Shown: positions 11,502 to 64,000 of the stretch, in pieces
How positions within the stretch are numbered: position 1 is the first letter of the stretch
Layout of the letters: each line of letters opens with the position of its first letter
From: Schmidtea polychroa
Taxonomy: Eukaryota
Direction: 5' to 3'
DNA: 64,000 nt
Assembly: GCA_044892525.1 (NCBI GenBank)
Contig: CM097885.1
Location: forward strand, 24,244,001 to 24,308,000
Made by a program: the position numbers and the translations under genes
The notes under the pieces: model-generated
What the model saw: only the letters and a program-made list of their open reading frames with translations
What the model was told of the DNA's origin: nothing
Databases searched by the model: none

Positions 11502-11708
11502 TCAAGGACCAACTATTGACTTACTATAATTGTGTGTATTGTGACAAATAATCAAAATTGGTTGAGGATCATGTGTTACTCTTTTTAACAAAATATCTTT
11601 TGAATAAATTTCTTATTTAATAGCTAAAGTATCGTTATGCATGATATTGACCTTATTATATTGAACAAGGGGAATGCTGCAAGCCAGTAATCGTTGTAAT
11701 TTATCTAG

Positions 11709-12178: not shown

Positions 12179-12869
12179 ACTTCCATTCCTTGATGTGTAC
12201 TTCTGTAGTGTGTTTATATATCTAGTAGTATTAAAATGATATTTCCTTTGCTGGTTGTTAAAATAATACATGTTCGGTAGCGTTAAAAAATGTCTGATAT
12301 ATTTTATGATTGTGTGAAAAGTGAGAGTTTGCACGTAAGGTTGGGAAAACAATTTTGATAAGGGACCTAAGGAAATCGGACACAAACCTTCTAACGGTAG
12401 TCCGTGAACCCGTGGAGTGCTCGACGATTATAGTGCCTCGATGCGCTCACTTTTCGCGAGCACTCAACCCTTGGTACAGGACCAACGTTGATTACTCAAC
12501 GGGTACCAAGCGGAAACACTAACGTTGTATTTTGGGTTACGCTGGCAACAGCACTAAAGAACAAAATATTTGATCATCAGTAACCCACCACTACTATTGA
12601 CTACGACTGGTGACGAAATCGTTAACTGGTTCTTATACTGATTGAATTACATTTTCTTAATTGTACTTGGTTTGGTTTATGCATGAATTTTAGTGTAATA
12701 AATTATTTCCGTGTTAACTAGCAACATTTGTATGTTGCGCTACACAGCCATGCTCGGGGATTTTAGGTCAATGCGCCGTTAACAATTTAACTATTTAATT
12801 AAATATTTATTTTCTAGTTAGACACATGAATGACAGTAACGAATTCTATTAGTATATTTTCCCTTTTAG

Positions 12870-13314
12870 TGTTTAAACTGTTCGAAAATCTGCGCAAAGA
12901 CCGGGAATAGGCTCAAAAGCAGGCCGAAGACCTCCGAGTCCGGGTCGACAAACTCAAGGGGAAGTGCCGGAAATTCGAGGGCACTTGGTTCAGCCCCGCA
13001 GATATGAAGAAAAAGACCGCACAAATTCTCCAACTACAGGCCCAAGCCACACAGGACCAGATGGAGATCCGCGCATTACAATTACAAGTGCGCGCGCTAG
13101 AAACCAAACGAAACGAGCAAACCGTACACGAAGCCGCAATGAGACAAATCCGGCCGCTGACCGTAGAACTGGCAGAGATATACCCCCGGCTGCGATAAAC
13201 AAACCCAAACGAAAGCGGTTAGGACGCAATATCCGCGAGAAACTAAAGAGAACCAGGTTGGCCGAACAGGAACGTCAAGATAAACCAACACCGACGCAAA
13301 CGTCTGCGATATGA
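12870..13314 (+). pseudogene. Disrupted homolog of the 11709-12178 coiled-coil ORF
   Basis: Same motifs (TWFSP, DQMEIRAL, KRKRLGRNIREKLK). Stop near 12908 and frameshift near 13190. Confidence 0.8.
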
Positions 13315-14328
13315 TTAACAGCTATGCAAATGATTTTTTTTTAATTGTTATTAAATTGGTATATGAGGTATTGTTTTATAATTGTTTGGTGACTGAAAAT
13401 TTGAGTATGGAGGTTTGGAAAAACAATTTCGGTAAGGGACCTGAGTAAATTGGACACATGCCTTCTAACGGTAGTCCATGGACCAACAGAGTACCCGACA
13501 ATTATAGTGCCGTCAGTGCGCTCATTTTTTGCGAGTACTCACCCACTTGATACAGTACCAACGTTGATTACTCAATGGTTATCAAGCGGTAAACAATGTT
13601 GTATTTTGGGGTTACGCTGTTAACAGCACCGAAGAACAAATGTTTGATCACCAGTAACCCACCTCATGTAAGACATTAAAATTTTTTTTCCTTTACATAG
13701 ATTCATCGATTTTCCAATGTCAAATCATCACATCAAAACGTCCACTCGAATAGAGATCCTCGACTAATCGACATGTGAATAGAAAGACACATAAACAATT
13801 ACGATATCCTGTAGCGTTGATTTGCCAAAATTAGTATTACCCAATCGAATAAACAAAGTCTTCCGAATTACCGATGTCAACCGAGATCTTTGTTTATGGT
13901 TCTCATGAGCCGAGATGTAGATATCATTTTGTCCAGCCGAATACTCCTATTAATATCAACGTAGGCAATTATAAACAATTGAAACAAGCCGATTTGTGCG
14001 ACAAATTCTAAATATCAGTCCAAAAAGTTCATTCATATACATAATCCCTAGACAAATTAAAGCAATTCCCGACTGACACCGGCTAACTGTTTACAAAATT
14101 CGACGATAAAACGGAAATTTGCATTCCCATCGTGTTTACATAGATTATGTGCAACTTTTAATAATTAAATTATCAGTACATAATTAATTATGATTTTAGA
14201 CATTAGGATTTCTTTTCATTTATTATAAAACTAGAGGTAAATGCACCTATCAAGGGAATGCTATCGACCATAGAACCTCATAACCCATCAAAGAAATACG
14301 TTCTACTCACAGTTTTCCATATTACAAC

Positions 14329-15371
14329 TGTTGAGGTCTGTAAATTAAAATTAAAAATTTAAATAAAATTTAGGATAATAATTCAAATGGAAAGTAAGCG
14401 AGGAAAAAGGCAAATAAAAGCGGGATCGTGCACAGAATCAATAGAATTGGAAAGTGTGATGGAAACAGTATTAGAAAATGCAAAAAGCAATTACGAAAGG
14501 CGAGAATCCGGAAATCCGAGAAAAATCAATAAATGGAAAAATCATCGAAATCGAATGGGAAAAACGGGACAGGTATAGATTAGCTAATGGTCAACAATTT
14601 AATGGTTAGGGATTTATCAGAAAAGGGTTAGAAAGGGTCGAAAAACATTCAAACGTATGAAAACAGAAAACGTTAATTAATTAATTAATTGGCTAATGGA
14701 AAACCCGAGCTAATGGAGAACCCGAGAGATAAAGGAAACCCGAGCTGGGTAAACAAGAAGAAAGGCAAACAAAAGGAAGAATTGGGCCCATTAGCTAGAC
14801 ACATTGATTAATGGGAAAAGAGTAAGGAGAAGATAGCGCGCGTAGGAAGACCGGTAGGGACATTAATTATCTGGATTCGTTGGACCATTATGGGTGACAG
14901 CCGAAGCAAACACGTAGGAGAAAATGTCAAACGAAAGATTGGCTCGGCAATAACCATTTGTCATCCTGATTTCGAGGAGTATATAAGCAAAGGGAAAATC
15001 AGAGAAAATCGGCAATTTGCCTCAGGTAGGGTAAGAAGAATCGAGAATAGGCGAGAGGTAAAAACGAATTTAGGGAAGTAGGGAAAAGAAGAAATAGAAT
15101 TAAGAATACGAAAAGGTGAAAAGGAATCAAACCAAACAGAAACCGAGGAAAACGTGAATCGAGAGAGAATCTAAAGGATTAAAAGGTGAATATTATTTGT
15201 TTGCAAAGCATCAACGCCGAGTGGAGAATCGTATAAAACTTTGATTGGTAATTGTAGCGTGATAATCAATTGTGAACCTGTTGTTTCAATATACGTTGGG
15301 TCGTTCATTGTTTTGATTTAAAGAACACAGGAGTCAGAGAGAACCGACTTGAAATAATCCAAAACCCAACA
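14329..15371 (+). repeat. 5' LTR
   Basis: TGTTGA...CCCAACA; direct repeat of 20907-21962. Confidence 0.95.
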
Positions 15372-15378
15372 TATATTC

Positions 15379-15396
15379 TGGTGAGCCCGACGTGAT
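15379..15396 (+). promoter_or_regulatory. Primer-binding site, tRNA-Trp type
   Basis: TGGTGAGCCCGACGTGAT just after the 5' LTR; 1 mismatch to the canonical Trp PBS TGGTGACCCCGACGTGAT. Confidence 0.85.
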
Positions 15397-15649
15397 TGAA
15401 AGTCGGAGGAAAATTATTGGAAGCTAGTGAAAAAGGAATTGTAAAAAGAATTAGTACCGACGCGATAGAGAGTCGGCTGAGAATCATTGAAAGTAGTGGA
15501 AAATTTGTGAAAATAGTGCTAATTAGATTATTAAAGGCTATTATTGGGAGATTTAAAAGAAGTTGAAAAGTAATTTTAAATTATTGTTTAACTCAATTGT
15601 TTAGCTCAAAGTGAACCGATACAACCTCAGAAGTCAGAAACAAGTCCAA

Positions 15650-18600
15650 ATGGCAAATGATAATGCTGTTATGCCTCTCAATAGAGAGATGATTGATTTC
15701 GCAAGTTGCCAGAAATTACCCGTCAATCAATATGGAGGAGACCCTGTTGAATTTGCAGATTTCATGGGAGATTATTATATGTACGCCTCAGCATACGGAT
15801 GGACACAAGCCATTATGGTTCAGAGATTCCCACTCTATCTGAAGGGTGCGGCAAGAGAAGCCTGGCAGCAAGTCGACAAACGAAATGTTGGCAATGATTG
15901 GACAAAATTGAAGGATGCAATGGCACTGAAACTGGTTGGTGGAGATATCAAAAGAATCATGCGACAGAAATTTTATAATCGAGTTCAAGGTCCAGATGAA
16001 TCGGTCAGTGAGTTTGCGTATCATCTGACCACTTTAGCAGATAAAGCATTCGAAGTCAAACCAGATCAAGCAGATATGGCCAAGCAGGTTAAAGAGCTGT
16101 TAGAAGATCAGTTTATAACCGGAGTCCACTCCGAAATTAAAAAGGCCCTATGTTATGTGGATTTTTCCAATTTCGATGAGCTCGTGAAGAAAGCCATGAA
16201 GATAGAGCTGAATTTTAAAAGTGCAAAAAGATCAGATGCTTTTGGAGTTAATGTGGAGAGACGAGAGCGATCAATTACGCCTGTGAGAGCACCATGGGAT
16301 GAAAAGAAAATAAATCAAATCAGTAGTCCAATTTTGAGACCAAATAATAGATTTCAAGCCAGTAGATCAGCCATGAACGTACAATCAAATGGACAGGTAA
16401 ATAATCCTCAATGCGAACATTGCAAATGTCTGGACACTATTCAAATCAATGTTGGTTCAAATATGGGAAAAATCCCAGCCCTAACAAGAGATTCACAGAT
16501 AACAAAAGGATCAGCAGTGATGTCGAATGCTATCGATGCGGAAAGAAAGGGCATATTAGCAGAAACTGTTTCACTAGATCAAGATCATCGTCAACTTCAC
16601 CTTCACCACAAAGGGACAAAGTGAATACAAATGGACAGATACAATTTCATTCGTGCAAGGGATACGGCCACATGGCGCGATCATGCCCAAGGAACTCAGA
16701 AAGATTCAGCAGACCTATTTTAAAGAAATCAATCAGATTCCAAGAAGATATGCCAAACACCAGTAACATGACATATGCTCAGAGAGAGGAATTTCAAGAC
16801 AAAATGGAAAAGGAATTTCGAGAAATGCGACAGAAGCTGAACAAACTAGTGGCTAAATTTGAATCAGATGAAGAAACTGAATCTCATATGATAATTGGAA
16901 CCGTGTCAGAAGGTGAGGGAAAACCTGCCATGAAAGTGCGAAAGATCGCATCAGATGAGAATCCGACTGCACTGTTAGCCCGAGGTGAAAAATGGCTTGA
17001 GAAAATGGAAACTGACAATTCCCAGTTGAAACGATGGATCGCAGAACTCAGCGTGATGACACTAACCCAAAGCGAACTAAAGAGAGCCATAAATTTATGT
17101 GCAAAGTTATTCAAAGGAAACAGAGACGATGAGATACTTAAGCAAATGCAAAAGTTTGGCAAGGCTTTACGGTCAACAAGGGATTTAGCTGATATCATAG
17201 TGGAAACGATGGGACTTGATAATGTGAAGTGCCAATTCCGCGTAAATGCATACGGACAAATCAGAGAGCTAAAGGAGCGAATACTGCGTCAATACAGTTG
17301 ATGGCAAGTGGAACTAAAATTTGAGAATCGATGTCTGAAAGACGAGGAGTACTTGGTAGATTGCGGTCTGATACCAGGCTGGAGAAATAAAGTAAATGTT
17401 GTTAATGCTGTTAATACTTTGAATTCAGACAGACATAATTGGGAAAAGATTCTAGCAGATTTACAAGATACCCTGTATGCAGGAAATGGAGATAAAATTA
17501 ATGCGAGTATCGACTTCATAATGAGCATCAAAATGGATCGAGACATGAAAGAAGGGTTGTTTGAATGCATCGTACCGTATACGAATAAACCGACAAGTTA
17601 TCAGGCAAAGTTAAGAGGTAATCCGAAAACTAGGACATGATTATGATGCGGCAGACGATAGTGCGAAGTCTTTGATAATAGCGTTAAATATTGCGGATCA
17701 AAGGATTGAATATTATCAGGAACATTGGAGTGTAAAAGCAAAGAAAATACGACAAAAAGCAGCGGAGATATTAGGTAATGACGGAATTATCGTGTTGACG
17801 TTCAAAGGACGAGAATTGGATGATGACGAATATTTGTTAAACTACGGATGTAACCCAAAAAGTATTAATAATGTGTACGCAACAAAACAAAGTGGTGAAA
17901 TGGAAAAAGATGCAGTAATAGTACCGTTTTGGCCTCTGTGTGAGGAAATGGATAATGATAATGTAGAGATTAAAACTGAAGTTGTAGATGACCCAGGAGA
18001 AATTGATCAAGAAATTAATGAATTGCAGAGATTAGAAACAATGGAAAATGAGGAAATGAGATCGGAAAATGAAGTTACAAGGGATGTTGAGGAAACGAGC
18101 ACCGATAATAGGGTACTACCGAGCATAGATGAGATGAAAAGTGAAGAGAACTTCGTTGAAACTAAAAATGACATTGCGATATGTCGGAAAAAACAAAATG
18201 ATGCGGAAACGCAATCTTTGAGTTTAGATGAATCAAGCGAAACTGAGCGAATATTAAAAAGTTTAGTTACGGAATTGTACTTGTTAGATGAAACTGAAAC
18301 CGAAGATGATACTTCGGAAGGGGAGAAAAGAGTTGTAAAAAGATTGGCAACGGAATTAAAGAGGAGATTACCGTCGATAATTAAAAGAAATTATGAAGAA
18401 AAGGAATTTTGTTAGGAAGCAGTAATTGAGAACCTAACACGAACCGAGTTGGATCGAGATGTAATATTGACAGTGCTAGCCTATATAATATTGGAGATTG
18501 GTATTTATGGTTGTCTGGAAAGTGACAATTCAAAATCATTGATAAAGAAAGCTACTGAAATGACGAATAAATATTTGACTAAGTGGATCGCAAACAATGG

Positions 18601-20497
18601 CGGATGGGAAAAGTTAATACAAAAGGCTGAGAGCCCAAAAACAGAGACAGTGAGGAAAAAGGGAAAACTCGCATTTCCATGGTTGATGATTTCTATTATT
18701 ATGTTATTGGGAATAATAAACACGACGAATTCATTGGTGGCATACGACTGCTCCCAAACCGAAATGGGAAGAGTATATTCGTTGGTAAACGTAGCAGAGT
18801 GTTCGGATGCATATCCAGTAAAATTTAAAGTGACAAATCCAGTAAAATATTATGTATACCAAGAATCGGGATTTAGACGAGCAAAGGTGAGAGAGTGTAC
18901 AGTGAAACGAACTACTTTCGTATTTTATTGTGGAAAATGGAGCCACTCATCGATGGTGAAAATGCAATCGATACCTAGACCGATAGAAATAATTCCAGAG
19001 AATTGTTTGGCAGCCTTTCAAACAGGACAGTTGAAAATCAATGCAGATATCAAACTACAAGCAAAGCTTAACCACAAAATCCGTGAGACTGTAACCGTGC
19101 GAGGGATAATAAAGTCGAATGGTGACTGCCAAGGAGAGCCATACAAAGTAGACGATGCTATAATTGACAAAGCCGTGGTTGTGGAAGAGTACATGTCAGA
19201 ATTAAGAGAATTTGATGGATCATTTGATGATGATACTGGTAAACTACAAACACATCCATTCTGCAAAATGAAACAATCTAGCTGTAAGACAGGAGAATCA
19301 ATCTTGGTGTACGATGTCGATACCAAAAAGTGCAATTTAGTGCAATTGAAGTCAATGAGTTTTAAAGAAATAACGGGAGAACAGATCAGGGAAAAGCCTG
19401 AGAAAATAAGAATGGATCCAGCAACGAGTACAACAACAAGAATTACACCTCTACGGACGAAAGATACTCCAACAGTGTTAATGTCAACCTCGGAGGAAGA
19501 TGGGATGCGATTCCTGAGAAAAGAAACTAAAACAAAGTGTGGACAAAGTGTCTATGAGACAAATTATAAAGGTATATATGTATCTCAGAAGATGATTTCA
19601 GAGGCCCAAACAAACATACATGCCGGAGATATCAAGTTGACAAATTACTTTAATAACAAAATAGATTATTTATTTCACTTTGGTCAAAATACTGTTGAAA
19701 ATGTGTACCGAGAAGTTATTATAAATGATTGCAATCTCAATAAAGAAATACTCCGAAATCGGATGGCAATGGCTATAACCAATCCTAATTTGGTAGCACC
19801 AATGTTAATTACAGAAAATGGGGTGTTTGCCAGAATTTTCGGTGAAGCACTATATAGCTATAAATGTAAAGCGGTACCAGTTAAACTGACAAAGTATGAC
19901 CAATGCACCAACGAGTTACCAGTAAATTTAAATGGAAAGTTGCGATTTATGGAGCCTGTAACACGAATCTTACTGGAAGAGGACGTGAAACCGAAAGTAT
20001 TACAGTGTAATAGATTGTTGGCACCACTATACAGACTAACACCAGAATCTTGGATTGCATTACCAGATCATCGAGAAGTAAAGACACCGGAAAATTTAGA
20101 ATTGACAGAATTACAATATCTGGTAAATTTTACGTCGTTAGAAAAATTGTCGCAAAGTGGAATTTACTCGAACGAAGACATTGAGGAAGCTCGCAGACAC
20201 TTGTTATTTCCATCAAAGAAGGAAAGAGTAATAATGGAAATGCTAGATACAATTCTCCCAAGCGGAAGTGGAAAGGTAAATTACGAGTATTTGTTAACTC
20301 CAGATCATTACAAGAAAGCGACGTATAATACAATGAAAAAGATCTGGGGAAAGTTTATGTTCATTGGACAAGCGTGTGCCGGATTGATTGGAATTTATGT
20401 AATATGCGTTGTAATCAAAGTGATAATATCGCAGGTCCTGTCAACACACAGGTCTGACATGATGATAATGATGGCGTTTTCCCTTATCTCCTGCTAA
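15650..20497 (+). pseudogene. Polyprotein Gag-ZnK x3-UBL x2-acidic-Bcl-2-like-TM/signal-chuvirus-like glycoprotein (2 frameshifts, 2 in-frame stops)
   Basis: ORFs 15611, 16411, 17308, 17672 and 18449 join via a frameshift at ~16425 (restores CEHCKMSGHYSNQC), TGA 17299, a frameshift at ~17615 and TAG 18413. Capsid motifs FPLYLKGAAREAW and QGPDESVSEF; knuckle CYRCGKKGHISRNC. Confidence 0.8.
18734..20450 (+). CDS. Env-like glycoprotein region, chuvirus G-like (class III fusogen-like)
   Basis: Signal followed by LVAYDCS..YSLVNVAEC..VRECTVKRTTFVFYCGKWSHSS. GEALYSYKCKAVPV..CTNELPV..FMEPVTRIL pattern. TM at ~20353-20440. Confidence 0.8.
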
Positions 20498-20894
20498 ACT
20501 TTCTTGGTAATATCCAAATTATCAACACAAATTGAATCAAGTCCATTTAAACTAGTCGATTAATTTTCTTAATAAAGCGAAAATGGCATCAAATTAAATT
20601 AAAATATTTTAGTTTTATATCGTAAAAATTATTATAGATTTTGGAGTATGAAATTTATTTATTGTATGATAATAATGGTAATAATGGTAATAGAAATGAA
20701 TAATATTAATAATAGTAACAATAATAATATTAATAATAATAATACTCGTTAAATAATTAAAAGATTTCTTTCTAAAAATATTTAATAATTTAAGAGTATA
20801 AAGTACAATCTAATAATATTTAAATGCATGTAAAATTACGTCCAAGGACATAATCACAGAAAAACATAAATTTCGAGGACGAAAAAATTTTTTT

Positions 20895-20906
20895 AAGGGG
20901 GAGATA
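20895..20906 (+). promoter_or_regulatory. Polypurine tract
   Basis: AAGGGGGAGATA immediately before the 3' LTR. Confidence 0.85.
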
Positions 20907-21962
20907 TGTTGATTAAATTAAAATTAAAAATTTAAATAAAATTTAGGATAATAATTCAAATGGAAAGTAAGCGAGGAAAAAAGGCAAATAAAAGCGGGAT
21001 CGTGCACAGAATCAATAGTAAAGGAAAGTGTGATGGAAACAGTATTAGAAAATGCAAAAAGCAATTACGAAAGGCGAGAATCCGGAAATCCGAGAAAAAT
21101 CAATAAATGGAAAAATCATCGAAATCGAATGGGAAAAACGGGACAGGTATAGATTAGCTAATGGTCAACAAGATGATGGTTAGGGATTTATCAGAAAAGG
21201 GTTAGAAAGGGTCGAAAAACATTCAAACGTATGAAAACAGAAAACGCTAATTAATTAATTAATTGGCTAATGGAAAACCCGAGCTAATGGGAAACCCGAG
21301 CTAATGGAGAACCCGAGAGATAAAGGAAACCCGAGCTGGGTAAACAAGAAGAAAGGCAAACAAAAGGAAGAATTGGGCCCATTAGCTAGACACATTGATT
21401 AATGGGAAAAGAGTAAGGAGAAGATAGCGCGCGTAGGAAGACCGGTAGGGACATTAATTATCTGGATTCATTGGACCATTATGGGTGACAGCCGAAGCAA
21501 ACACGTAGGAAAAAATGTCAAACGAAAGATTGGCTCGGCAATAACCATTTGTCATCCTGATTTCGAGGAGTATATAAGCAAAGGGAAAATCAGAGAAAAT
21601 CGGCAATTTGCCTCAGGTAGGGTAAGAAGAATCGAGAATAGGCGAGAGGTAAAAACGAATTTAGGGAAGTAGGGAAAAGAAGAAATAGAATTAAGAATAC
21701 GAAAAGGTGAAAAGGAATCAAACCAAACAGAAACGGAGGAAAACGTGAATCAAGAGAGAATCTAAAGGATTAAAAAATGAATATTATTTGTTTGCAAAGC
21801 ATCAACGCCGAGCGGAGAATCGTATAAAACTTTGATTGGTAATTGTAGCGTGATAATCAATTGTGAACCTGTTGTTTCAATATACGTTGGGTCGTTCATT
21901 GTTTTGATTTAAAGAACACAGGAGTCAGAGAGAACCGACTTGAAATAATCCAAAACCCAACA
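20907..21962 (+). repeat. 3' LTR
   Basis: Near-identical to the 5' LTR, with one extra GCTAATGG.AAACCCGA unit. Confidence 0.95.
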
Positions 21963-22221
21963 CAACTACTATAATTTGGATTTATAATTTAAAAATATTT
22001 TAACTAAATTTTTCGAAAATAATCTTGATCAAAGCTCACCCTTAATAATTAGTATGCGATGCGAAATTACTCATTTGTGACGATGAAGATGATCAGACTA
22101 TAGCACTTAATTGCGTCGAGAGGAAGTGGATAGAGCGAACCACCTGAAGGACATAGAATTTTTTTTGTTAAAAATTAGTGGCAAAGTTTCTTATGATCTG
22201 CAATTATCACATTTAATTTAG

Positions 22222-49161: not shown

Positions 49162-50058
49162 TTAATAAATACGTAAAATTAGTGAATCATCCCACAACTG
49201 GCCATTTACAGGAATATTTTCACTATCTAGGATTTCATTTCCCCCTGATACAGTGCTACTTATAACACTATTTCCTGCGTGAGGTACCGGCAAACCAGGA
49301 ACACTTTCTTGTACCGCTACTATTCCATTAGAGTTCATTATAGGATAACTTGAAAAATTTCCCGTTATTCCATTTGTGAAATGTGACTCTTCATTTACCA
49401 ATGGTAATTGGCTATTAGCATGAAAAAAATCATCCCACAACTGCCCATTTACAGGAATATTTTCACTATCTAGGATTTCATTTCCCCCTGATACAGTGCT
49501 ACTTATAACACTATTTCCTGCGTGAGGTACCGGCAAACCAGGAACACTTTCTTGTACCGCTACTATTCCATTAGAGTTCATTATAGGATAACTTGAAAAA
49601 TTTCCCGTTATTCCATTTGTGAAATGTGACTCTTCATTTACCAATGGTAATTGGCTATTAGCATGAAAAAAATCATCCCACAACTGCCCATTTACAGGAA
49701 TATTTTCACTATCTAGGATTTCATTTCCCCCTGATACAGTGCTACTTATAACACTATTTCCTGCGTGAGGTACCGGCAAACCAGGAACACTTTCTTGTAC
49801 CGCTACTATTCCATTAGAGTTCATTATAGGATAACTTGAAAAATTTCCCGTTATTCCATTTGTGAAATGTGACTCTTCATTTACCAATGGTAATTGGCTA
49901 TTAGCATGAAAAACATTTCCTTCTAGAAACACCTCGGTACCAAGAACATTTTCTTGTATCGCTACTATTCCATTAGAGTTCTCGCTATCTGTTATAGATG
50001 ACACTTCATTTATCAACAGATTTGAACTTTGTGAAAAATCTGAATTTTTGATAGTCAT
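49162..50058 (-). CDS. 298-aa ORF of unknown function with three near-identical 81-aa (243-bp) repeats
   Basis: ATG start and open frame through the repeats (~49185-49912); N/S-rich, acidic. Confidence 0.5.
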   Translation of the reverse strand: MTIKNSDFSQSSNLLINEVSSITDSENSNGIVAIQENVLGTEVFLEGNVFHANSQLPLVNEESHFTNGITGNFSSYPIMNSNGIVAVQESVPGLPVPHAGNSVISSTVSGGNEILDSENIPVNGQLWDDFFHANSQLPLVNEESHFTNGITGNFSSYPIMNSNGIVAVQESVPGLPVPHAGNSVISSTVSGGNEILDSENIPVNGQLWDDFFHANSQLPLVNEESHFTNGITGNFSSYPIMNSNGIVAVQESVPGLPVPHAGNSVISSTVSGGNEILDSENIPVNGQLWDDSLILRIY

Positions 50059-50491
50059 TATTTTATTTATAAATCTAAGATTTACCGTATAAATCTACGA
50101 AATCCATCTCCCCGTAATTAATGAAAATTTTAAAACCCAATTTTATTTTTCTAAAACATTTAATATTAGTATTATGATATAATTATAATAATTTACAAGT
50201 AGTCGATTGACTAATAGTAAACAAAATTAAATAAGTTGTAATAAAACAATACTCAATAGCTTATTATAACTTTAAATACTAAAATGTGTATTTTAATAGA
50301 TTATTTGTCTTTTTCAGAAAAAGCTCTAAAATTACCTAATTTTTTAATTATTAAACAAAAATATTAATATTTATTAAATTTCTTAATCAATTATAAGCAT
50401 TTCTTAGAATTTTGACTCTTACAATTTTATCAATTATTGTGAATTCTTCAAAAGATAAATCAATTAACTTGAAAATTTATATCCTATAGAT

Positions 50492-50811: not shown

Positions 50812-50821
50812 CTATAGATAG

Positions 50822-53800
50822 TGGTGGGTTACTGATGATCAAATATTTTGCTCTTTAGTGCTGTTACCAGCGTAACCCAAGATACAACATTGTTTACCGC
50901 TTGATACCCGTTGAACGATCAACGTTGGTACTGTAGCAAGACGGTGAGTACTCGCAAAAAGTGAGCGCACTACTTGCACTGTAATTGTCGAGCACTCTAA
51001 TGGGTTCACGGACTATCGTTAGAAGATGTATGTCCGATTTACGCAGGTCCCTTATTATAATCACTTCCTCAACTATGCCTATACAAACTTTCTATCCTCA
51101 AACGATCATAAGTCATCAGGAATCATACATTACTCTATTAAAGCCTGTTCATACAACACCACATCTAAAATGTTTGAATATAAATTAAGTGAAACATAAC
51201 CATAGTTTATTAAACAAACCTCAAGAAATTTTTGAGACTAATGAATTTAATTAGAAAATAAAAAAAAACTTAATAAACTGAAACAATAGAAATGATAAAG
51301 ATAACATGCATTCCCCACGATAACCTGATCAAAAGAAAATTTCAATTTAGTTAAGTTAACTTACAACCTATTTTAACATAATCCAAATATCACTTGTAAA
51401 TTATGGGTAATATTAATATATGAAGTTTAGATTCATTACAATCATAAAAGTTCTTATGAAGAGTAAATAATTCTAATCTACTTAAATTTTCAATTTATAA
51501 TATTCCTCAAACGACCAAACTAACTCCGTAATATACTTGAATTCATTATGTTAAAATACTAGAACAAGTTGGTAACTAATAAATTAAATAAAGTAATGGA
51601 ATTTTGATTTCATTATTACTTTTTGTTTTGTTAAAGTTATTTAACATTATTTAAATTTTCGTTGTTTTATTATAGTAATTATAATTAATGTTAAATAACA
51701 AATTTTGAATAAATATATGATTTTAGTTAACTTTGATATAATAATGTAAATAAATTAAAATTTTAAGCATTTATATCCTAAAATTTCATAATATTTCAGG
51801 AATATCAGCATTTGGCCGAATCTCCGAACAATTACTATTGATCAATAATGTATTATGACATCTCGAATGAGCAAAGATCATTTGACAACACCAATGAGAA
51901 AATTGTAATTAACTTCCTTAATTTAATTAATTAACTTCATTAATTTCCTTAGCAATCGAGTTGATAATAATTCAGTGAGGTACGAAGGTTTGATTGCCCC
52001 AAGGTCAGTTCCACCAACTAATCTTCCTGGCGGAATTATCTGACAATGACTACTCAAAAAGAGATGCAAGGAATATAGTTGGCCATCCAACAATATTACG
52101 TCAAATCAATATGTAAGTCATTGAACCAAAAGGAACGAAGCAGAAAATAAGGAATTATCCAGAAGTCTTCCAACTCCAGGAAATGTATTTCATTGGGATG
52201 GTCCATCAACCGTGCTCGAAGGACCTTGGTATAACTATGATTCAAAGAAACAATTATATGAATAAAGTTGATGATCGAAATCAATAAACTTAGTCTTTGT
52301 TTTTCTTTTTTTTTTGATCTAGTTAAAAATAAATTTAGTCTCTTTTGATTTAGTTAAAAATAAATCCAATAATTCTAATAAATCAATAAATGATTCTACT
52401 AAATTACTTCAGTAAACTACTCTAACCTCGCTCCATCACCTTAAGGGGGTTGTGACCATCACATAACAGGGGTCTTGAGGGGGAAGGTTATCGTATTTTT
52501 ATAAGGTTGCTTTATAAATCTGTATGTACATACACACACACACATATATATACACACACATATATATATACATATACATATACACACATACCTATATATG
52601 GATATAATTTAAATTAATAATATTGATGTCGTTTTCCGGGGGGGGGGGTGTTACTAAAAATAGATTTTAGTGATTTTCCGTAATTTTATTGGAAGATAGG
52701 GCCATTGAAACTAAATTTAGAGATAGGGGAATCCGAAAATCGATAATTTTGTTTAAAATTTTATTTTTATGAAATAATAATTACTTTAATAATATAATCA
52801 GTTTAGTGGGGTTACTGGGGAAAATAAAATCAATGATATCAATAAAATGTAATAGTAGTACTAATGATAGTAGCAGTAATGTTAAAATAACAATAATGAT
52901 AAACGGCGAATGTACCTTGATATCTTTATGAAATTACCACGGGTATATAGCTTGGGGGTCATTTAGGAATTTTAAGAGTTATCATTTTAAAATCAAATAT
53001 AAGATGAATATATACATATATATATAAGAGTAGTCTATCTTAGTGTAAATTTAGATAAATATATAATTTGAGGGGGGTCATTTAGGAAATTTTACCACTT
53101 ATATTTTTTATTATAATGTAAGTTAAATATATATTAAAATAAGCCAATTTAGTATGTATAAGTTTGAGGGGGGTACTCGTGAAAAAGGTAAGTTATACTT
53201 TTATAAGTTTCAAATATACATATATAAGTTAGATTATGAATCTGGACATTTGTTTCGACCATTACGTAACTTGGGGGGGGGGGTATTTATAAAATATTTA
53301 CAACTTATTATAGATTATATTTTTATCGCTAACGTAGTTTATATTTTATACTTTTATGACCAAATTAAGATTATAATTTATAGTCTTTCAGCTAATATAA
53401 GTTTATAATTTATATTTTTATGAAGTTAAATTTATAGTTTATATTTCTAAAGCTAATATAATTTTATAATTTATACTTTTAAGTTTATAATTTATATTTT
53501 ATGAAGTTAAGTTAAATTTATAGTTTATATTTTAAAGCTAATATAATTTTATAATTTATACTTTTAAGTTTATAATTTATATTTTATGAAGTTAAGTTAA
53601 ATTTATAGTTTATATTTTAAAGCTAATATAATTTTATAATTTATATTTTTATGAAGTTAAATTTATAGTTTATATTTTAGAGCCCATATAATTTTATAAT
53701 TTATACTTTTAAGTTTATAATTTATATTTTATGAAGTTAAGTTAAATTTATAGTTTATATTTTAAAGCTAATATAATTTTATAATTTATACTTTTAAGTT

Positions 53801-55808
53801 TATAATTTATATTTTATGAAGTTAAGTTAAATTTATAGTTTATATTTTAAAGCTAATATAATTTTATAATTTATATTTTTATGAAGTTAAATTTATAGTT
53901 TATATTTTAGAGCCCATATAATTTTATAATTTATACTTTTAAGTCTATAATTTATATTTGGTGAAGTTCAATTTATAGTTTATATTTCCAAAGCTAATAT
54001 AATTTTATAATTTATATTTTTATGAAGTTAAGATTATAATTTATAATTTTTATCGTCAATACAAATTTGTAATTTATAATTTCAAGAAATTAAATTTATA
54101 ATTTATACCTTTATAACTAATCGTAATTTACATTTTGAAGAAATTAAATCTATAAGTATAATTCACATTTTTATGAAATTGAGAGGATAATTTATACTGT
54201 TATGGGTTTACGATTTGAATTTTTATAGTTAGTTTAGAGTCTATTCAATTTAAAATCCAAGTCTTGCTGATGCGCATGTCGAACACCTTTATGAATACTA
54301 TCACTACTAAATCAATCATTTTTAAAAAATCTTTACTTTACACTATTACTAGAAAATTTATTTAAGACATTTATAAATCTAGATTCGACAAACGTATAGG
54401 TAGAGTTGGTTCTTGATGATATTTAACCGTCTACATTAATTGTGAATTGTAGAGTTGTGATTAATTTAGGTCTGAGATCTACTCTGTTTATCAACCTTAG
54501 TGTATTGTATTGTGATGATTTTGGATGTAGAGTTTAACTATGTAAATTATTCATGCATTGAAAGTCGGGAAGAGTGTTTGCTTTCGCGGCCCCACTGTGA
54601 CCACTACGACAAACCTTACTGTTGTGTGGTAAGTCAACCCTTTACGGCTGACCTATAATAAATAGGTAGAGTCAGACGGAGGATTTCATCGACTTAACTC
54701 CATGGCAGAACCATGAAGTGGTGCGACCTCCGAATGACCTGAACAAAAAAAAAAACAAATAATATTGATAAGTGCGTGCCAGGCAGTGGCCTGCAATCAT
54801 TGTGGGCTGTTTAATCATCGATGATAAAGTGCATAGGTGCAGGGTTGGCTGGGATCTCGCTTCAAAATCAATGATAACCGACGATCTCACTCAAACCTAC
54901 ATTTCTATAGTTAAAAAGAAATAATGAAAACAAGCTTTCAATAATAATAATTTATAATTCACAATGAAATCGTCCTTACCTACAATCTCAGAGAAATCAA
55001 AACCAAAAATTTTGCATAAGAGTAAAAATATTCATTTGCATTTTTTTTTCCTAGCTTTTAAAGTGACGAAATGTGTTAGTTTATATAGCCTCTGTTTGAC
55101 GTGTAAGTATACATGCGTGCATTGATGCAGTAAAACAAATTCAGATTATTTTAATTCTCGAACATTCGATTTTTAATTTTTATCGATTTTGATGGCGATT
55201 TTTCAGTAAGAATTTTTGTTTTTATTTTTGAAATTTTATTTTCGAATTATTTTTTATTAAATTTGCCTCCATGATAGATTTCAGCATTTCCAGAACAGTC
55301 CATGCTAAATTTAATCTATTTCTTATTTTTAAATTGTTTTTTATGATTTCTTTTCTAAAATATTTATTTTTTAAACTAAAATATTTATTTTTTATAAATT
55401 TTATTGGGTCGTTTGGCCGTCATGATGGATTTCGCCATTTTTATGAATTGTTCTGGATTTTTATTCAAAATATCGATATAATTTTCTTTACGTAAGATTT
55501 TATGAAGATTTTCTTTAATTTTCTTTTTTAATTTTTACTAATCGCCTTTATTCGAATTTGTTTTTTGTTGTTTTATGTCTTTCGGTTATATTTGAGTAAG
55601 TTTTCGTGTAATACTTCTTGCTCGTGTTTTATTTTATTTTTAATTCAGATGTTTTATTTTTGGGTATATTATCTCTCTATTATCATTGTTTACTTGGTGT
55701 TTTATATATTTTTATTTAAGTAAACTTAATGCTGGGTATGCGTGTTGTGTACTGACACATTTCGTCCCATTCCCAACTTTGGGTCTAGAAATCAGTTCTA
55801 GCCCAACA
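50822..55808 (-). repeat. Giant 4.99-kb LTR, family A; probable 3' LTR of the adjacent gag element
   Basis: Revcomp starts TGTTGGGCTAGAACTGA and ends CAGTAACCCACCA. Flanks (ATAG / TAAA) do not form a TSD. Same strand as, and downstream of, gag. Confidence 0.8.
53380..54170. repeat. AT-rich tandem array within LTR-A copy 3
   Basis: Recurring GAAGTTAAATTTATAGTTTATATTTTAAAGCTAATATAATTTTATAATTTATA units. Confidence 0.85.
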
Positions 55809-56124
55809 TAAAACACTCGGGGGCCCATAAAATTGCGACCCGCAATTTAATCAAAAGTTCAAGATATAATTAGACAGAATTGGTTGCACTGTATTACAAG
55901 TGCCTACATGTAATTGGGTCCACGAGCTACAGGGTCGTGACCTCAATACCCACATACATAAAAAGTTTCTACTGATACGCTACATGCTACAGATTGGTTT
56001 AAAGATGAAGAGAAAGAAGACCACGGTCGGTCCACACAAAATTTAATTAAATTGTTATGCTCAAATAATATCAAAGTAATATATAATATTGGCATCAAAT
56101 CACAATAATAGTCAAATCATATCA

Positions 56125-56335: not shown

Positions 56336-58048
56336 TTAAATACTTGGTTGTTCGGGATCCCATCTCGATGACGGCTCTAGATTTGAAGGTTGTAGAAGAT
56401 AGATTTGATAGATTTAGTCTCTGGGTATTGGTTCTTCTATTAGAATGCGAATGCTTCGGAATTGTTCTTTCAACTTGAGTTTTTGTACTTTCATGGATTT
56501 GAGTGGGATTAAGGGCTATCAAGCTCAGTATTGTTATTTATCATGAGATTCGCTGTTAACAGGATCGGTACTGTTATGGATTCGGGGTTTTCTTTACATT
56601 CAAATTTTTTTTCTTCTTCTGCTGCCCTTGTTTTGATTGTCACTTCTTTCTTTAGCTCTCGTCACATGCTCACTGTTTTAATTAGTTGGATTGTATCAGT
56701 CGAGTTGAGTTCTTCTTCGAGGTTATTTGATTTAGTGTGTAGGTTTTTTTTTTTTTTTTTTTTTTTTTTGACAGTTGTCATTACTCCTTTCTAGATTTCC
56801 ATGAGCATCTTTATTAGGACATTTTAGTATACGAAGTCTGCGTTGAAGGTAGTTGATATTCTCATTTTTATTCCTTCTAACGTTTTGGTCATTGTCTCAT
56901 GGTTCATCGGGATTTTGTTCATAGTTGTTATTATTTCCATCTATATCTCTCTCAATGTTTTTATTTTTTCATCTTGAGTAATTAGCTTTTCTTTGACTGC
57001 GTTATTTACCCTTTCCTTTATTTCTTCGAGCGTCTTTGTTTCATAGTTGCTCGGACATTCGTTGACAGTCATCATTATTTTCTGCTTTATTTCTTCTAAG
57101 ATTTTTATTATTATTGTCATCTGGGGTGTGGCTGATTCTTGCTGTGGTTCTCTCTTTAACTTCTGCTTTTCTTGTTACAAGTCGTGTAGTACCTCCATGG
57201 CATAATCTACATCCATATAGGGTTTGACGTGCTCTTATTAATAATCTTTGTCCGCACACAATAGTCTCTCCTCGAATTCATCTGACTTGACCTAATATTT
57301 TCTTTTCAGCTCATAGTTAATAGTTTTGTTCCTCCACTTCTCTCCACTTTCTCTCGGCATTCTGCCATGATAGCGTTTAATCTCGGAGCTTCTACTTTGG
57401 CTATAATTTTGTTTGTTTACAGGGCTACTTTCCCTTCTTTTATGTCTCTCCTGTTGAGTCCGGTTCCCCAGTTCCTGGTAGGTCGGTTATCCACTCAACT
57501 TAACTCGTGATATCATCATGCTGACGGTCTTCGCGTAATCTCCTGATTTCTCCTGTCTACCGTTTTATTTGGCTTATCAACTGTTTGTTATTGTATTCTT
57601 ATTGTGCGATTATTTGTTGTTGCTCTTTTATTCTTGTTACATATATCGAGTTTCTATTGATGCTCTCCATTAACGCATTCTAATTACGTAACCGATATTC
57701 ATGGGTATGGTTTGTCATTTGATATTAATTCACATTGTGTTATTCACATTGATCCTGCTGACTAACTTGGTTGGTTTATCGTTGTACTTGTATCAATTTC
57801 TACTATTTATGTCTGATTAATGTTTACTAGTGGTTGATTTCCCAATTCAACAACATGTGGTATCCTCGTTTGATATACTTGATCCTCGTTTCTCTGATTC
57901 ATTTCTTATTTACAATACGTAGTTATCATACCCATTTTTTTTTGTACTTTTTTTTTTTTTTTTTTTTTTTTGAACATATTACTAATCTACTAAACTACTT
58001 TTACCCTCACGTTTATATACACACTATTTACATCGACTCATCACTTTC

Positions 58049-61000
58049 TTATACCATTGTTGCCAGGGGACCTGAATGCAATGTGCGCATTCCCCCATAT
58101 CTTTCATCCGTTAGCCGGTATATGTCAAATTCGTTTACCCAATCGTCTAGGGTTTGTATTCTGAGTAATTTTTGCGTCCATAGTCTGCTTGACCTTGGAT
58201 CTTCAATCGCTTCGTACTCTTCTGGATTCGGGTTTTCTGTTGGAATACCATATTCGGAATTCTCCACTTGTGGCCATTTTTTTCTGCCTTTAGGTTTTTG
58301 TTTACATATTTTGGAGGTTCTTATCCATTGGATTATTATTGATGTTATCACTGCACTCATTATTGCGCTAGCGATCCACATCATTTTAACGGTTATCAGT
58401 GTCTTGTTGTTGAATTTTCCTGTCGTCATCATCATTTTAGTTTCTGTTGTAGTGGCCTCCTGTGTTTTATTTTTCTTGAGCATCTGGTATAACTGTTTCG
58501 TTTCTTCTGCCGTTAGATGTTCGTTTCCTTTTGGCTTTTCCACTTCTTTTGGTTTTCTGGTTGCCAATGGTATGTTTTTCAACCGTGGTCGTTGTCTGGT
58601 TATTGCTTGGCATGAACTTAAATCGCTTCCGTTTTTAAGAACGCATATGTGGTATCGTCCCTTTCTTTCTCCTATTGTCATTTTAACTTCTGCACCTTTG
58701 TCAAGTAGTGTTTCTATGCAGTCGACTATTCCTGTCCTGTTTAGTACACATACTCTTACTATTGGTTCTTCACCTTGGTTTCTGACCGTGATTACTTCTT
58801 CTCTTTTCTTGTTGAATTCGACATTTACTAGTACTTCTCGTCTCTCATCTTTGATCCATATTACTGTTGTGTTTTTCTTGGTTTGGTGCTGTCCTCTTAT
58901 CATTCCCGTACGGGATTGTTTCTGGGGTTTCTTAATTGCCGGTTTGATCCTTGGTTGATATCGTTTACTAGCCATACTTTTTGGCCTGCTTTTTATTTGC
59001 GCGGTTTTAACTGCTTTACATACCACTATTGCCTGGGTACCTGCGCATACCACCATGTTGGTGTTTGGTTTTACGTTTGTCCAAAAAAATTCGCGATCTC
59101 GTTTCATGTCCACCGTTATACATATGTCTTCGTCATCTCTTCCATTGTAGCTTTAATTGCGACATGTACTCCGGTTTCGTTAGCTCTTTCCAATTCTTTT
59201 TCTTCTGATGTTATGTCTTCGCAAATGTTGTAGTCTCCGCATAATTCAGGTTCTCCATTTTGACTATTGAAAATCCTCCCTTTTGTTATCGTTCTAAAAT
59301 CACAACTTACTCCGGTTCCTTCCATCAATTGGATGCATATCCCGACCGCGTTTCCGTCGTTGCCGCTGACTTTTATCATGAATAGTTCGCCTTCTTTCAG
59401 ATTTCCTCTCGTAATTCGCGTATTTTTCGTTTCTGTTAGGCAAATTGACGTTAGTATTATTAGGATAATTTGTAGTAGGAGTGACTGGTTTAGATTCTTC
59501 CGCATTACTATGTTATGCAGTGGGGACTTTCGTTTGTCGTTCTCTGTTTCATTATGTAGGTTGTCATCACTTTGGTCTGAGTTGTCCTCAGTATCCTTCA
59601 AGTCTTCGTCGTCATCTTCTGACTCCTTGTCTTCTTTATTATCTCGTTCGCCTGAATTCCCATTTATGTTGTTCCTTTCATGGTTCCCGTCGTCTTCCTC
59701 ATTTTTGTCGTTATGGTCTTTGTCATTTTTTCCACTCCGGCCTTTTCCAAAAATGTCGTCTTCGACATGTGATGTTTTGATCATTTCTTCGTGTTTATTT
59801 AAATGACTATTCTTCAGTGATTCTCTTACTATTGTCACTTTTCTATTGGATGGCCATGGTAATTCTTGTTCACATCTGATTCTCTCGTATTCACCATATT
59901 TTGATATCAACTCCGTTGTTCGTTTATATTCAAATCCCATAATCTCAGTACCCCGTACGTCTTTGACAAACTGTTTCATTAGCTGCGGCCATCTTTCCCT
60001 AAATCTGTTAATATATTTCTTCGTTTGATCGATTGCTTGTTTTACTAAGATTATTTGATTTTCCTTCATAATCTTTCGTTCAATCTTTTCTATTTCTGGT
60101 TCCACTTCATTGTTGAATATCTGTTGGATTTTTCTCAGTATTTCCGTTACTGATTCGTTGTCTCTGTTTTTCTTTAAGATTAAGATATTAACTTCGTTTG
60201 GCCATATCATCACATCTACTAAATGTATGCTCATTTTAACTTTATAACCATTGTCGTATAGCTGTTTATTTTTATGACTTGTTCCCATCTTTTGTTGTAC
60301 CCAATTATACAGTTTATCGGTATTTGTTACTTTTAATTCAATAATCTGTATCTGAGTTTCAGGGTGTTGAATACTTACTTGGTATTGATCTGGATCAACT
60401 TCTTTCAATTTTCCTTTATATTTCGTCACCAAATCTTTCCATGTTGCCGTTAATATATCTCCTTCCCACTGGTATGCTTGAGTTATCAGTTTTATACATT
60501 TTCTGTATGTTGGTTCGTTGATATAGCTCTCATTTCGTTCTCTTTCCGATACCGTGTCGGAAATTTCCTCAAATATTTCCTCATCGTCATTTTCTATCAG
60601 TGATTTCATATCGTCGCTCTCACCCTCTTCGTTATTTTGAGGTGTTCCTTGTTCATTATTTTCATCACTTGATTGAGATAATGCACTTCTCAGACTACTC
60701 ATCGTACTTTTCTCGTCTTCCTGGTCCGTCTGATCCTTCTGTATTTGTCTCAGCATGTTTATATTGGCTCTGTTACTTGGTTCTTTCTTTTCGAACCACT
60801 CATTTTTCCTGAACCAGTTGTCTTTTACTTTTTCTTTTACTTGCTCATCCGTTAAATTTGGTTCTTCTCTTCTAATTCTATCTTCAATTTTTTGTAGTAA
60901 TACCCTCTGAATTCGATTCTTTGTAACAATCTCGTTGCTTTTTGGTTCGTGCCCTGTTTCATCACTTCTTCGTCTCTTTTCTTTTTCCTCTTTGGTGAAC

Positions 61001-62685
61001 TCTTGTATTATTTTTATTTTATCCTCGCTACTCAGTTCTGTCAATTGCTCCGTCAATTGATGTGACCCATTTTCTTTTATCGCTTTCGTCTCGTTGATTA
61101 CGGTTATATCGCTCCCTTCCTTGTTAACACACTGCTCCGCAGTGTGCGGTTCCCCTTTGTTCATTGATCTCATCATATTTATTCTTCCGGTGTTGGTTTC
61201 TCGCTTTTTCCATCTTTTTTGAATTTCTCTGGCTTTTTCGTTTAGTGGTCTCTGCCCTTCGATTCGTTGCTGGTCTTGTTGTTCTCTTGTTGGTCGTTTC
61301 CGGATATCCTCTGGTATCCGTTGGATCATCTTTTTCAACTGTTCAATTTTCTGCATGATGTTGATTTGTATATTTTGACTTGGATCGTTTGCTCTTGGTT
61401 GATTATGTTTTGTCTTCATCGCGCATTCTCTCGCCACATGTCCAAGTTGGTTGCAACTGTAGCAGGTTCTAGTCCTTCCTCCTCTCATCGACATCATTGG
61501 TCCTCGGCATATATTTTCTGTGTGACCCCTTTTACCGCAATTTTGGCACATCCTTGTCTTATAACACTCGTTGCTCCAATGTCCTAGTCGTTGACATATG
61601 TTACACTTCCGATTATTGTTCTCGTTGTTCCTGAAATTATTAGTATAAAATTGAATATTACCTCTGTTATCTGGATTTGTCATTTTTGGCGCCTTGAACA
61701 ACTGTTGCGATTCTGAGATAAATTGATTCATTCCTAGATTTCCATTGTTGGTTTGATTAATTTCGGTTGTCGTTGTTGGTGTTGTAGCTATTGGTACTGC
61801 TGCCATTGCTGCTACTTGTACTGGAGTCAAGTAGTTTTCACATTTATTAGCGATTTTTAATGCTTCCTCGAGCGTGTCTGGTGCTCGGCACCCCACTGTT
61901 GCTCGTATGTCCTTTCTTTTCATACCCTCTACGAATACGGCTATTATCTTGTCTTCCGGAACTGTTTGATTTGAATCGAATGCTTCTTTTGCCAGTCGTC
62001 TTAATTCACATGCATATAGAGCGTTTGACTCATTGTATTTCTGCTTTCGATGCAGAAAATCCAACATTTTGCGATTTACTTCCCTTTTGCTACCGAATGT
62101 TTTTATTAAAAAATTCTTTATTGATTTCCATGTTTTTAGTTTTGTTGCATCACACTTTGCCTCTAAATATACATCTTGTGCACTTCCTCTTAAATATAAT
62201 GGTATTCGCTCTCGTACGACTATGTCTGGCCAGTGACATATTGTAATATATACCTCGAATTCTTTTATAAACGTTTCTAGTTCATTAATATTCCCATCGA
62301 ATGGTTCTCCTCGAAATCTTTCTCTAAGTTCTCCAACATTGACATTAACATGGTTTATCTCTGGTGTGTATGTCAACTCTGACCCATTCGGGTTGTTCAC
62401 TTGGTTTCCGTCTAACATTATATCTCGACACGAACTTGTCATGCCTGAACTACTATCTTCCTTGTCTGTTGGTTTGATATCAGTTACCGGATATAATTCG
62501 TTTCTTTTAATATCGTCGCTGTTTTCACCTTCGTTGGTTAAGCTGTCTGATTCAAATAATGTTTTCACTGGCGCTGGTTTCTTATTGATTCTTCTGTTTC
62601 TCTTGGCTCTTTGTCTCTCTGCGTTTCCTAATAAACTAGAGCCTCCTTTACTCTGCAATCTCGTTCGATTGGCTTTTTTATCCAT
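58049..62685 (-). CDS. Gag polyprotein (capsid, 3 CCHC knuckles, UBL-like, acidic, signal, ectodomain, TM); frameshift near 59150
   Basis: IPLYLRGSAQDVY and RKQKYNESNALYACEL; knuckles CNICQRLGHWSNEC, CQNCGKRGHTENIC, CYSCNQLGHVAREC. Hydrophobic segments at ~59431-59480 and ~58325-58385. Confidence 0.8.
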
Positions 62686-63544
62686 CTTTCTCGCTTTAAT
62701 AATCTCTTTTGAATTTCACTGTGTTTCGTTGGCCAACGCTTTAATTTTCCTCTTGGTATTTAATTTGACTTTGTTTACCTTTCTTCTATCCTCGTTTGAT
62801 TCTCTTGATTCCTTATTTGTTTTCTTTTGAATTTTTGATTTCTCTTTATTTCTCTTGAATTCTTGGCTTGTATTGACTTCCTTCTGACTTATTGATTGAC
62901 TTATTCTAAAATAATTAACACTCCTAGTACATATCATAATATTTTATTCATTTTATCCTACCCTTCATTTATTTCCCTATTTTCTTTATTTTATACTACT
63001 CTTTACTCATTATTTCTCTCGCTGTTCCTTTTCTAATTCATGGTACGCTTTTACTTTTTGCTACTCACCCCCCTTTGAATTTAAGTCCATTTTTAATTAT
63101 CTATAACTCGTATCAATTATCTATATCGTCGTATCAATTATCTATCGTATAATCACAACATCAATTATATAATTCAAAAATATATATCATTAGTCATATA
63201 CATATAAAACTCATCAGTAACTTAATTAATATCTCCTCATTCGCTTTTCCCCATTCAAAAATTTGGTTTCATTTTCTCTTGCGCCGGCGCTCTATCATAA
63301 TTTTCCTTTAATCATTACCTCTTTGTCGCACTTAATCTATGTCAATTTAATCGATTTCATCTTAATCGTTTATCTCTTTTATTTCGTTCATAGTTAATCA
63401 TCGACGCTTCGGTTCGCGCGACCTCTACGTCTACATTTATTTACCATCGGCTCCCTGGCTGGTTTAATCACCTCTCTTATTTCATTTAAATCATTTATTT
63501 TCATTCAATTACCATCGGCTCTCTGGCCGGTTTAATCAACTCAT

Positions 63545-64000
63545 TTTAATCTCATGAAGTCTTTTACGACTCCTAGACGCCTGGGCTTTAACACCATTAC
63601 GCCATATAATTCACTATCAACCATCAACGCTTCGGTTTATTCGACCTCCGCGTCGGCATCGGCTTCCGGCCGGTTTAATTATACTTTTAATCTCCGAAGT
63701 CTTTTACGACTCCTAGACGCCTGGGTATTTACACCATTACGCCATATAATTCACTATCAACCATCAACGCTTCGGTTTATTCGACCTCCGCGTCGGCATC
63801 GGCTTCCGGCCGGTTTAATTATACTTTTAATCTTTGAAGTCTTTTACGACTCCTAGACGCCTGGGCTTTAACACCATTACGCCATATAATTCACTATCAA
63901 CCATCAACGCTTCGGTTTATTCGACCTCCGCGTCGGCATCGGCTTCCGGCCGGTTTAATTATACTTTTAATCTTTGAAGTCTTTTACGACTCCTAGACGC
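63545..64000. repeat. 140-bp tandem repeat (at least 3 copies, runs off the window)
   Basis: GAAGTCTTTTACGACTCC at 63556, 63696, 63836 and 63976. Confidence 0.95.

Follow-up and report, generated by a model that had tools for sequence, protein, structure and literature searches.

The 64,000-nt stretch of Schmidtea polychroa DNA analysed here (the window; positions 24,244,001-24,308,000 of its chromosome, within a 781-Mb genome) carries at 58049-62685, on the minus strand, the coding part of a long terminal repeat (LTR) retroelement with a total length of 21,296 bp. The low GC content of the window and its Burro-type elements fit a dugesiid planarian. Very probably, the element arose from a giant Gypsy retroelement of the Burro1 type by internal deletions that removed pol; it is represented by ~110 young copies and likely lives as a satellite of the full-length family.

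A preliminary description of the window had predicted an ATAG target-site duplication and a 5′ LTR, and both were found when the contig was extended beyond the window. The 5′ LTR, 4,984 bp in length, lies 3.1-8.1 kb past the window end (stretch L011 3134-8117) and is 99.92% identical to the 3′ LTR, with 1 mismatch and 3 small gaps; because the LTR pair differs by one mismatch, the insertion is taken to be very young. In agreement with that description, pol was absent between the LTRs, across the whole 21.3-kb element. Past the window end follow, in this order, a leader block shared with the full-length family, a broken RING open reading frame (ORF), a primer site that reads as tRNA-Pro from the 3′ end of that tRNA, and the 5′ LTR. 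The leader of the element yielded neither an Rfam match nor a tRNA gene. Two poly(A) tracts, at 56,744 and 57,948, might have been the tails of retrogenes, a reading that was rejected since the element terminates in LTRs; poly(A)-like loose ends within the LTR, located in A-rich sequence, were left uncounted. At least two LTR subtypes occur in the derivative, two copies (L020 and L028) having an LTR middle unlike that of the window copy (51052-53819). The features of the element within the window are as follows:

50818..50821, plus strand: target-site duplication ATAG, 4 bp; the second copy flanks the 5′ LTR, outside the window
50822..55808, minus strand: 3′ LTR, 4,987 bp, with TG...CA ends (comparison with the 5′ LTR)
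55809..55851, minus strand: conserved motif of 43 nt located where the plus-strand primer is expected (comparison with the full-length family)
56340..57905, minus strand: decayed remnants of three parental accessory ORFs, namely the last ORF, the start of the TRAF ORF and a 153-aa ORF (tblastx and stop counts; Pfam matches of the parent ORFs)
58049..58327, minus strand: last part of the fusion ORF, a predicted cytoplasmic tail carrying tyrosine motifs (the parent polyprotein ends in the same C-terminus)
58328..58384, minus strand: predicted transmembrane helix (Kyte-Doolittle 1.83)
58598..59436, minus strand: ectodomain of three beta-rich units with four cysteines each, broken near 59,139 in the window copy (model of the third unit)
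59437..59493, minus strand: predicted internal signal or signal-anchor helix (Kyte-Doolittle 2.04)
59521..59799, minus strand: acidic tract, 35% D+E, originating from the post-ankyrin region of the parent (composition and parent alignment)
59800..59862, minus strand: MATH remnant of ~20 codons between two deletion joints (comparison with the parent MATH domain)
60178..60390, minus strand: small conserved alpha/beta segment, termed ubiquitin-like (UBL) in the preliminary description (ratio of non-synonymous to synonymous substitution rates, dN/dS, against the parent)
60406..61419, minus strand: charged, probably coiled-coil region (composition, 20% D+E and 19% K+R)
61420..61608, minus strand: nucleocapsid with three CCHC knuckles (zf-CCHC, E 3.5e-10; pattern CX2CX4HX4C)
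61828..62331, minus strand: capsid domain (PF03732 Retrotrans_gag, E 2.7e-06)
62683..62685, minus strand: first ATG of the fusion ORF, the putative start
63513..64000, minus strand: 140-bp tandem repeats of the 5′ leader, reaching the window end

Most of the module order proposed earlier was thus recovered: the capsid (in frame 59116-62715), the three knuckles, the charged region and acidic tract, the signal-like and transmembrane helices, and an ectodomain whose 12 cysteines equal those of the full-length parent in number and spacing. That these modules form one polyprotein proved correct for sister copies but not for the window copy, in which a 52-nt deletion near 59,139 splits the fusion frame into two minus-strand frames, 59116-62715 (1,199 codons) and 58049-59152 (367 codons). 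The same deletion is common to three other copies (L107, L108 and L119), which places it on three chromosomes in all. A single open frame was present in all four sister copies first compared, and the intact fusion frame of the derivative family measures ~1,572 codons.

The origin of this frame was read from a family of 35-kb elements (two copies measured 35,510 and 35,221 bp) with LTRs of ~5 kb, hereafter the parent family. Its polyprotein of 4,791 aa (frames up to 4,794 aa) shows Pfam matches to CCHC knuckles, MATH, a Monjiviricetes fusion protein (the env; E 2.6e-68), protease (PR), reverse transcriptase (RT), RNase H (RH), integrase (IN) and ankyrins, and its accessory ORFs encode a TRAF protein and an IAP with BIR (E 1.6e-15) and RING (E 2.3e-12) domains. 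The polyprotein also holds ubiquitin-like domains, a profile including them reaching ISG15 at E 1.3e-08. BCL2-like and dUTPase-like motifs gave no Pfam match in the parent, and a BH2-like motif before env was seen by eye only. When the derivative ectodomain was used as a query, 108 matches fell at 90-100% identity and 42 at 67-70% (150 scored of 455 candidates), the latter sitting in polyprotein frames of up to 4,794 aa. Residues 1-951 of the derivative align with residues 1-967 of the parent at 72% identity; ~20 residues from inside the parent MATH domain follow the Gag part (17 of 29 aa identical, E 2e-05; 63 of 89 nt); and the C-terminal part aligns with the last 600 residues of the parent at 54% identity over 557 aa. 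Because these three segments align in series, the fusion is attributed to in-frame deletion: two such events, of ~0.85 and ~8.8 kb, took out the ubiquitin-like domains, MATH, env, pol and the ankyrins, and so brought Gag into one frame with the membrane module that follows integrase in the parent itself. A third deletion of ~5.5 kb took most of the accessory ORFs, including much of TRAF and the BIR-RING IAP, while the leader RING ORF and three 3′ accessory remnants are broken. The membrane module gave no Pfam match to Monjiviricetes_fusion and is not the env, which in the parent sits in the deleted part. A match at C2:31.86 Mb was tried as a single-deletion intermediate and rejected as a frameshifted full-length copy. 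In each LTR copy of the full-length family that was examined, a coiled-coil ORF of 150-180 codons was present (L043 1317-1850); in the derivative LTR this ORF was not seen open.

With a query covering both joints, 112 matches spanned both of them (150 scored of 815 candidates; rows counted by hand), 55 of these having an open frame of at least 1,560 codons. Another 35 rows ended at the first joint at 87-88% identity, 18 of them in frames of at least 4,770 aa (4,788-4,791), and three rows were partial. These counts are lower bounds, biased toward well-kept copies, and no pol-bearing family closer than 87-88% was present among the 150 scored matches. Each of five derivative copies has its own 4-bp target duplication and stops exactly at the LTR ends, and a contig from an independent sequencing run crosses both joints. 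The derivative is a real, active, non-autonomous family of ~110 young, transposing copies.

The LTR bodies of the two families are 67-81% alike where alignable, whereas the LTR end with the primer site, and 73 nt around the start of the 3′ LTR, are 98-100% common to both. The 43-nt motif is 98% identical to that of the full-length family, against 67-83% in the flanking blocks. Of 52 derivative copies, 42 have it without any change, and a 35-mer from it occurs 361 times, exactly matched, in the same genome. No polypurine tract precedes the 3′ LTR, the last 20 nt containing 9 purines, and plus-strand priming may, to judge from this sequence, be unusual in the Burro-type family. The motif itself is GC-rich and nearly invariant, has an 8-bp inverted repeat and recurs at the equivalent position of full-length elements (L045 7601-7643). 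A leader block of ~800 nt is 94-99% alike between families, as close as helper copies are among themselves, and is a candidate packaging signal; it lies 330-1250 past the window end (L011) and holds an internal duplication. Of 21 derivative leaders compared with nine helper leaders, one contains a tract of 113 nt that is closer to the helper (98%) than to the nearest sister copy (89%), and another observation concerns five leaders, which are 99.6-100% identical to a single helper copy along ~245 nt. Template switching in shared particles is established retroelement biology and would be the simplest reading of this exchange. Four of four full-length copies also have 4-bp target duplications. 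Since primer site and LTR ends match and leader tracts were recently exchanged, the full-length family is the likely helper, and mobilisation in trans by this partner is likely.

On this basis, derivative RNA would be packaged along with helper RNA and protein, its own Gag preferentially coating its own RNA, and tRNA-Pro would prime the derivative RNA for reverse transcription and integration by helper enzymes. The retained signal helix may tether derivative Gag to the endoplasmic reticulum membrane, a topology that would be the same as that of the helper Gag precursor, for which the env signal presumably provides the anchor. The surface module, likely Ig/FN3-like, is inherited, not captured.

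This module consists of the signal helix, three four-cysteine units, a stalk, the transmembrane helix and the tail, and is predicted to be a type I membrane protein. Modelling of the whole ectodomain gave a predicted local distance difference test (pLDDT) score of 41.7; units 1 and 2 did not resolve, and the third (~60) modelled passably, as a beta-sandwich with matches at Z 7-9.2, among them Z 9.2 to RbmA (rmsd 2.6, 82 aligned) and Z 7.7 to an IL-17 receptor complex chain (rmsd 2.5, 81 aligned). The units are likely Ig/FN3-like sandwiches. The internal repeat among the three units was weak (12, 15 and 111 of 1,000 shuffles). No homologue of similar length, nor any longer one, was found among proteins of up to 4,470 aa, a limit below the parent length; among 1.84 billion protein representatives only two spurious repeat proteins were matched, and an Atlas search with the module and the UBL segment returned no match. 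None of these negative results speaks for novelty or for absence.

Several observations weigh against a derivative of the sampled full-length family that is held together by selection on its fusion frame. Synonymous divergence (dS) between the derivative and that family is mostly 0.6-1.3, so that the latter is not the direct progenitor, and the decayed accessory ORFs still show dN/dS of 0.14-0.30 against it. The low accessory dN/dS implies that these ORFs were functional for most of the separation and, with the dS values, that the direct ancestor was a sister autonomous lineage, absent from the sampled matches. Leader exchange could have proceeded by DNA-level gene conversion, and membrane tethering is predicted from hydropathy. 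As to expression, contigs from two runs, only presumed to be RNA, cover the element, with no silent-stretch control. Within the derivative family, dN/dS on shared variants was 0.51 in the Gag half and 0.85 in the membrane half, with no amino-acid constraint to be detected (private variants, 0.63 and 0.70; p 0.57 and 0.70 against shared). Eight frame-breaking lesions are each present in 2-5 copies of the 31 broken copies examined, 20 of which were picked largely for repeated frame lengths, and five of the eight, that of the window copy among them, lie in the membrane half. The tally excludes an in-frame 18-nt event and one event before the first ATG.

These last figures bring forward the strongest alternative, which shares the ancestry and the helper and treats the membrane half as a passenger, the frame being kept open by nonsense-mediated decay of genomic RNA with early stops or by the short time elapsed. 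The shared-variant ratio in the membrane half, with 3 synonymous against 15 non-synonymous changes in the ectodomain units, and the spread of lesions inside the module speak for it. The distribution of stops does not. Among 23 copies, namely those with intact frames out of 33 compared, the 422 codons of the neighbouring accessory remnants contain five fixed stops (present in 22-23 of the 23), whereas the membrane half, with 507 codons, has no fixed stop (Fisher p 0.019), nor has the fusion frame as a whole (p 0.0004). Shared lesions are rare in the fusion frame, whereas remnant stops occur in 12-23 of 23 copies, and copies with far earlier stops (codons 501-693) have spread as well. With 55 of 112 copies intact, no lesion is fixed in the fusion frame, and none of the eight shared lesions falls in the capsid or nucleocapsid (chance 0.08). 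Because fixed stops spare the membrane module and broken copies nevertheless spread, the module is kept in the main line yet dispensable for single jumps; weak selection probably maintains its reading frame, but a copy does not need it in cis to move. We regard the passenger explanation as a real possibility, to be given appreciably less than an even chance.

A broader proposal, which we advance tentatively and consider rather doubtful as it stands, is that Burro-type elements carry a second, unannotated post-integrase surface protein of Ig/FN3-like type that differs by family, and that the satellite has been selected to keep capsid and surface protein while shedding env, pol and an IAP reportedly of benefit to the host, acting as a cheater or interfering particle on a mutualistic transposon. 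A related explanation, in which the derivative behaves like a defective-interfering element, seems unlikely; here the helper would be restrained because helper particles are poisoned or competed for by the fusion of Gag and membrane module, or because the surface protein blocks a receptor or immune ligand. It would account for the set of parts kept (Gag, shared leader block, surface module) and lost (env, pol, IAP), and for ~110 derivative copies beside some hundreds of helper-type matches; the helper is itself young and abundant, however, with many intact frames (18 of the 35 rows above).

The preliminary description had instead placed the element, with a second one at 15.6-20.5 kb, in a class of its own, made up of Gag-UBL elements that lack pol and swap membrane cargo of unrelated origin at the C-terminus. 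The element is indeed pol-less and mobile, and both window elements do fall into a single group, known already as Burro (PMC6431247), of polyprotein retroelements in which ubiquitin-like domains follow Gag. The comparison element (14329-21964; target duplication CAAC) is 96% identical to 17.7-kb copies with full pol, and its deletion joint was found in 1 of 40 scored matches (278 candidates), that one being the window itself. It is a single, decayed, privately deleted copy of a pol-bearing, compact family, and therefore lends no support to a pol-less class; its sisters encode a 3,334-aa polyprotein with PR-RT-RH-IN, in the order gag-UBL-UBL-BCL2-env-pol plus a post-integrase membrane module, and the family is very abundant (2,228 candidates). 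The parallel module order, taken earlier for a shared plan, arises from two different deletions and is therefore accidental. As for exchangeable cargo, the module of the derivative is native to its parent and was shifted by deletion, as the MATH scrap marks; the idea keeps some ground in that both full-length families end, after integrase, in a signal-ectodomain-transmembrane module and that the two modules have no detectable relation (hhalign probability at most 2.6%, blastp E no lower than 0.12). In the compact family's module (L064 1082-2191), FN3-like motifs were seen by eye, with no Pfam match.

The UBL on which this class was built fared no better. The quoted peptide lies at 60178-60390, a segment with dN/dS of 0.18-0.20 against the parent (capsid, 0.06-0.07), and has no Pfam or PDB profile match. 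A profile of four real ubiquitin-like domains (two of the parent, two of the compact family), which finds ISG15 as noted, gave the segment 3.0 bits, reached by 101 of 1,000 shuffles, and hhalign against it a probability of 4.4%. A model from six near-identical rows (pLDDT 63) starts beta-beta-alpha, and three fold searches with this middling model returned no ubiquitin or beta-grasp row, the best hits (Z 6.2-6.9) being unrelated folds. The lack of profile and fold support is not a disproof, and we put the chances that the segment is ubiquitin-like at about even; the parent's two profile-supported ubiquitin-like segments were deleted from the derivative. A separate class is thus largely refuted and very improbable. 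Segmental duplication or assembly error in place of transposition, suggested by matches that are tandem pairs or lie on small contigs, is refuted by the separate target duplications and exact LTR ends of five of five copies and by the contigs from another run that cross the joints, and retains next to no likelihood.

Elsewhere in the window, a solo LTR of a full-length Burro-type subfamily occupies 7660-12590 (target duplication CTAC), with a partial second LTR piece at 12867-13663. A hAT transposase-like frame of 611 codons lies at 558-2393 on the minus strand and has a BED finger and a dimerisation domain, and a 310-codon frame at 49162-50094, also on the minus strand, contains three near-identical 243-bp repeats and has no convincing family. 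Beside a full-length copy, an ORF cluster (L054 1721-7400) looks Polinton/adintovirus-like by eye, with candidate integrase-like and packaging-ATPase-like frames.

Non-autonomous LTR elements are common, and these and the Burro layout were known already; what stands above routine is the retained surface module, the exchange with the helper and the missing purine tract. Elements of 35 kb are hard to dissect, and with the derivative nature has supplied a deletion series in one of them. The LTR ends, the primer site, the 800-nt leader block and the 43-nt motif in place of a polypurine tract emerge from it as candidate cis signals. It also tells which genes are expendable for a hitch-hiker, and it brings to light a surface protein, encoded after integrase, that had gone unannotated. 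VL30 is an example of the defective, helper-dependent elements that keep cis signals, borrow enzymes and recombine with a helper. The derivative resembles the VL30/BARE-2 type in its kept cis signals, its presumably borrowed enzymes and its probable recombination with the helper; unlike in helper-dependent retroviruses, its fused membrane module stems from the helper itself and was not captured from a host.

In Chaparro 2015 (PMC4350172), BARE-2 is described as lacking Gag and keeping pol, the reverse of the gene loss seen here. The plant TR-GAG elements of the same account are <4 kb and Gag-only, with LTRs, a polypurine tract and presumed mobilisation in trans; like the derivative, they have LTRs, a primer site, a target duplication, one Gag ORF, no pol and many young copies. 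The derivative differs in being 21.3 kb long and animal, in its 1,572-codon Gag-membrane fusion, in having no polypurine tract and in having an identifiable partner family with which it exchanges sequence. GAG-ENV-POL errantiviruses with an HSV gB-type env are reported for Platyhelminthes by Chary and Hayashi 2026 (PMC13524379), and share with the parent and the compact 3,334-aa family an env between gag and pol; that survey demanded intact RT and IN, and the derivative has lost exactly env and pol.

We found no non-autonomous Burro derivative in the literature, though Grohme 2018, Jurka 2007, Lee 2026, supplements or repeat libraries may already list one, and in section 7 of Arkhipova and Yushenova 2019 (PMC6431247) there is no mention of a multi-copy, non-autonomous derivative or of a membrane module after integrase. 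In that text, Burro1/GYPSM1 are giant planarian Gypsy elements of >30 kb with an ORF1 of 4,873 aa. Burro1 and the parent are alike in size (>30 kb), Gag with three CCHC knuckles, MATH, ubiquitin-like domain, ankyrins, BIR and an in-frame mononegavirus-like env before PR-RT-RH-IN; the published ORF1 of 4,873 aa compares with 4,791 aa here, and the correspondence is one of layout. The derivative, devoid of env, pol, MATH, ankyrin and IAP, is not an autonomous member of this group. The Burro1 IAP is reported in PMC13465017 (citing Lee 2026) to protect stem cells, so that a derivative which thrives despite its loss offers a way to test for cheating on a mutualism between host and transposon.

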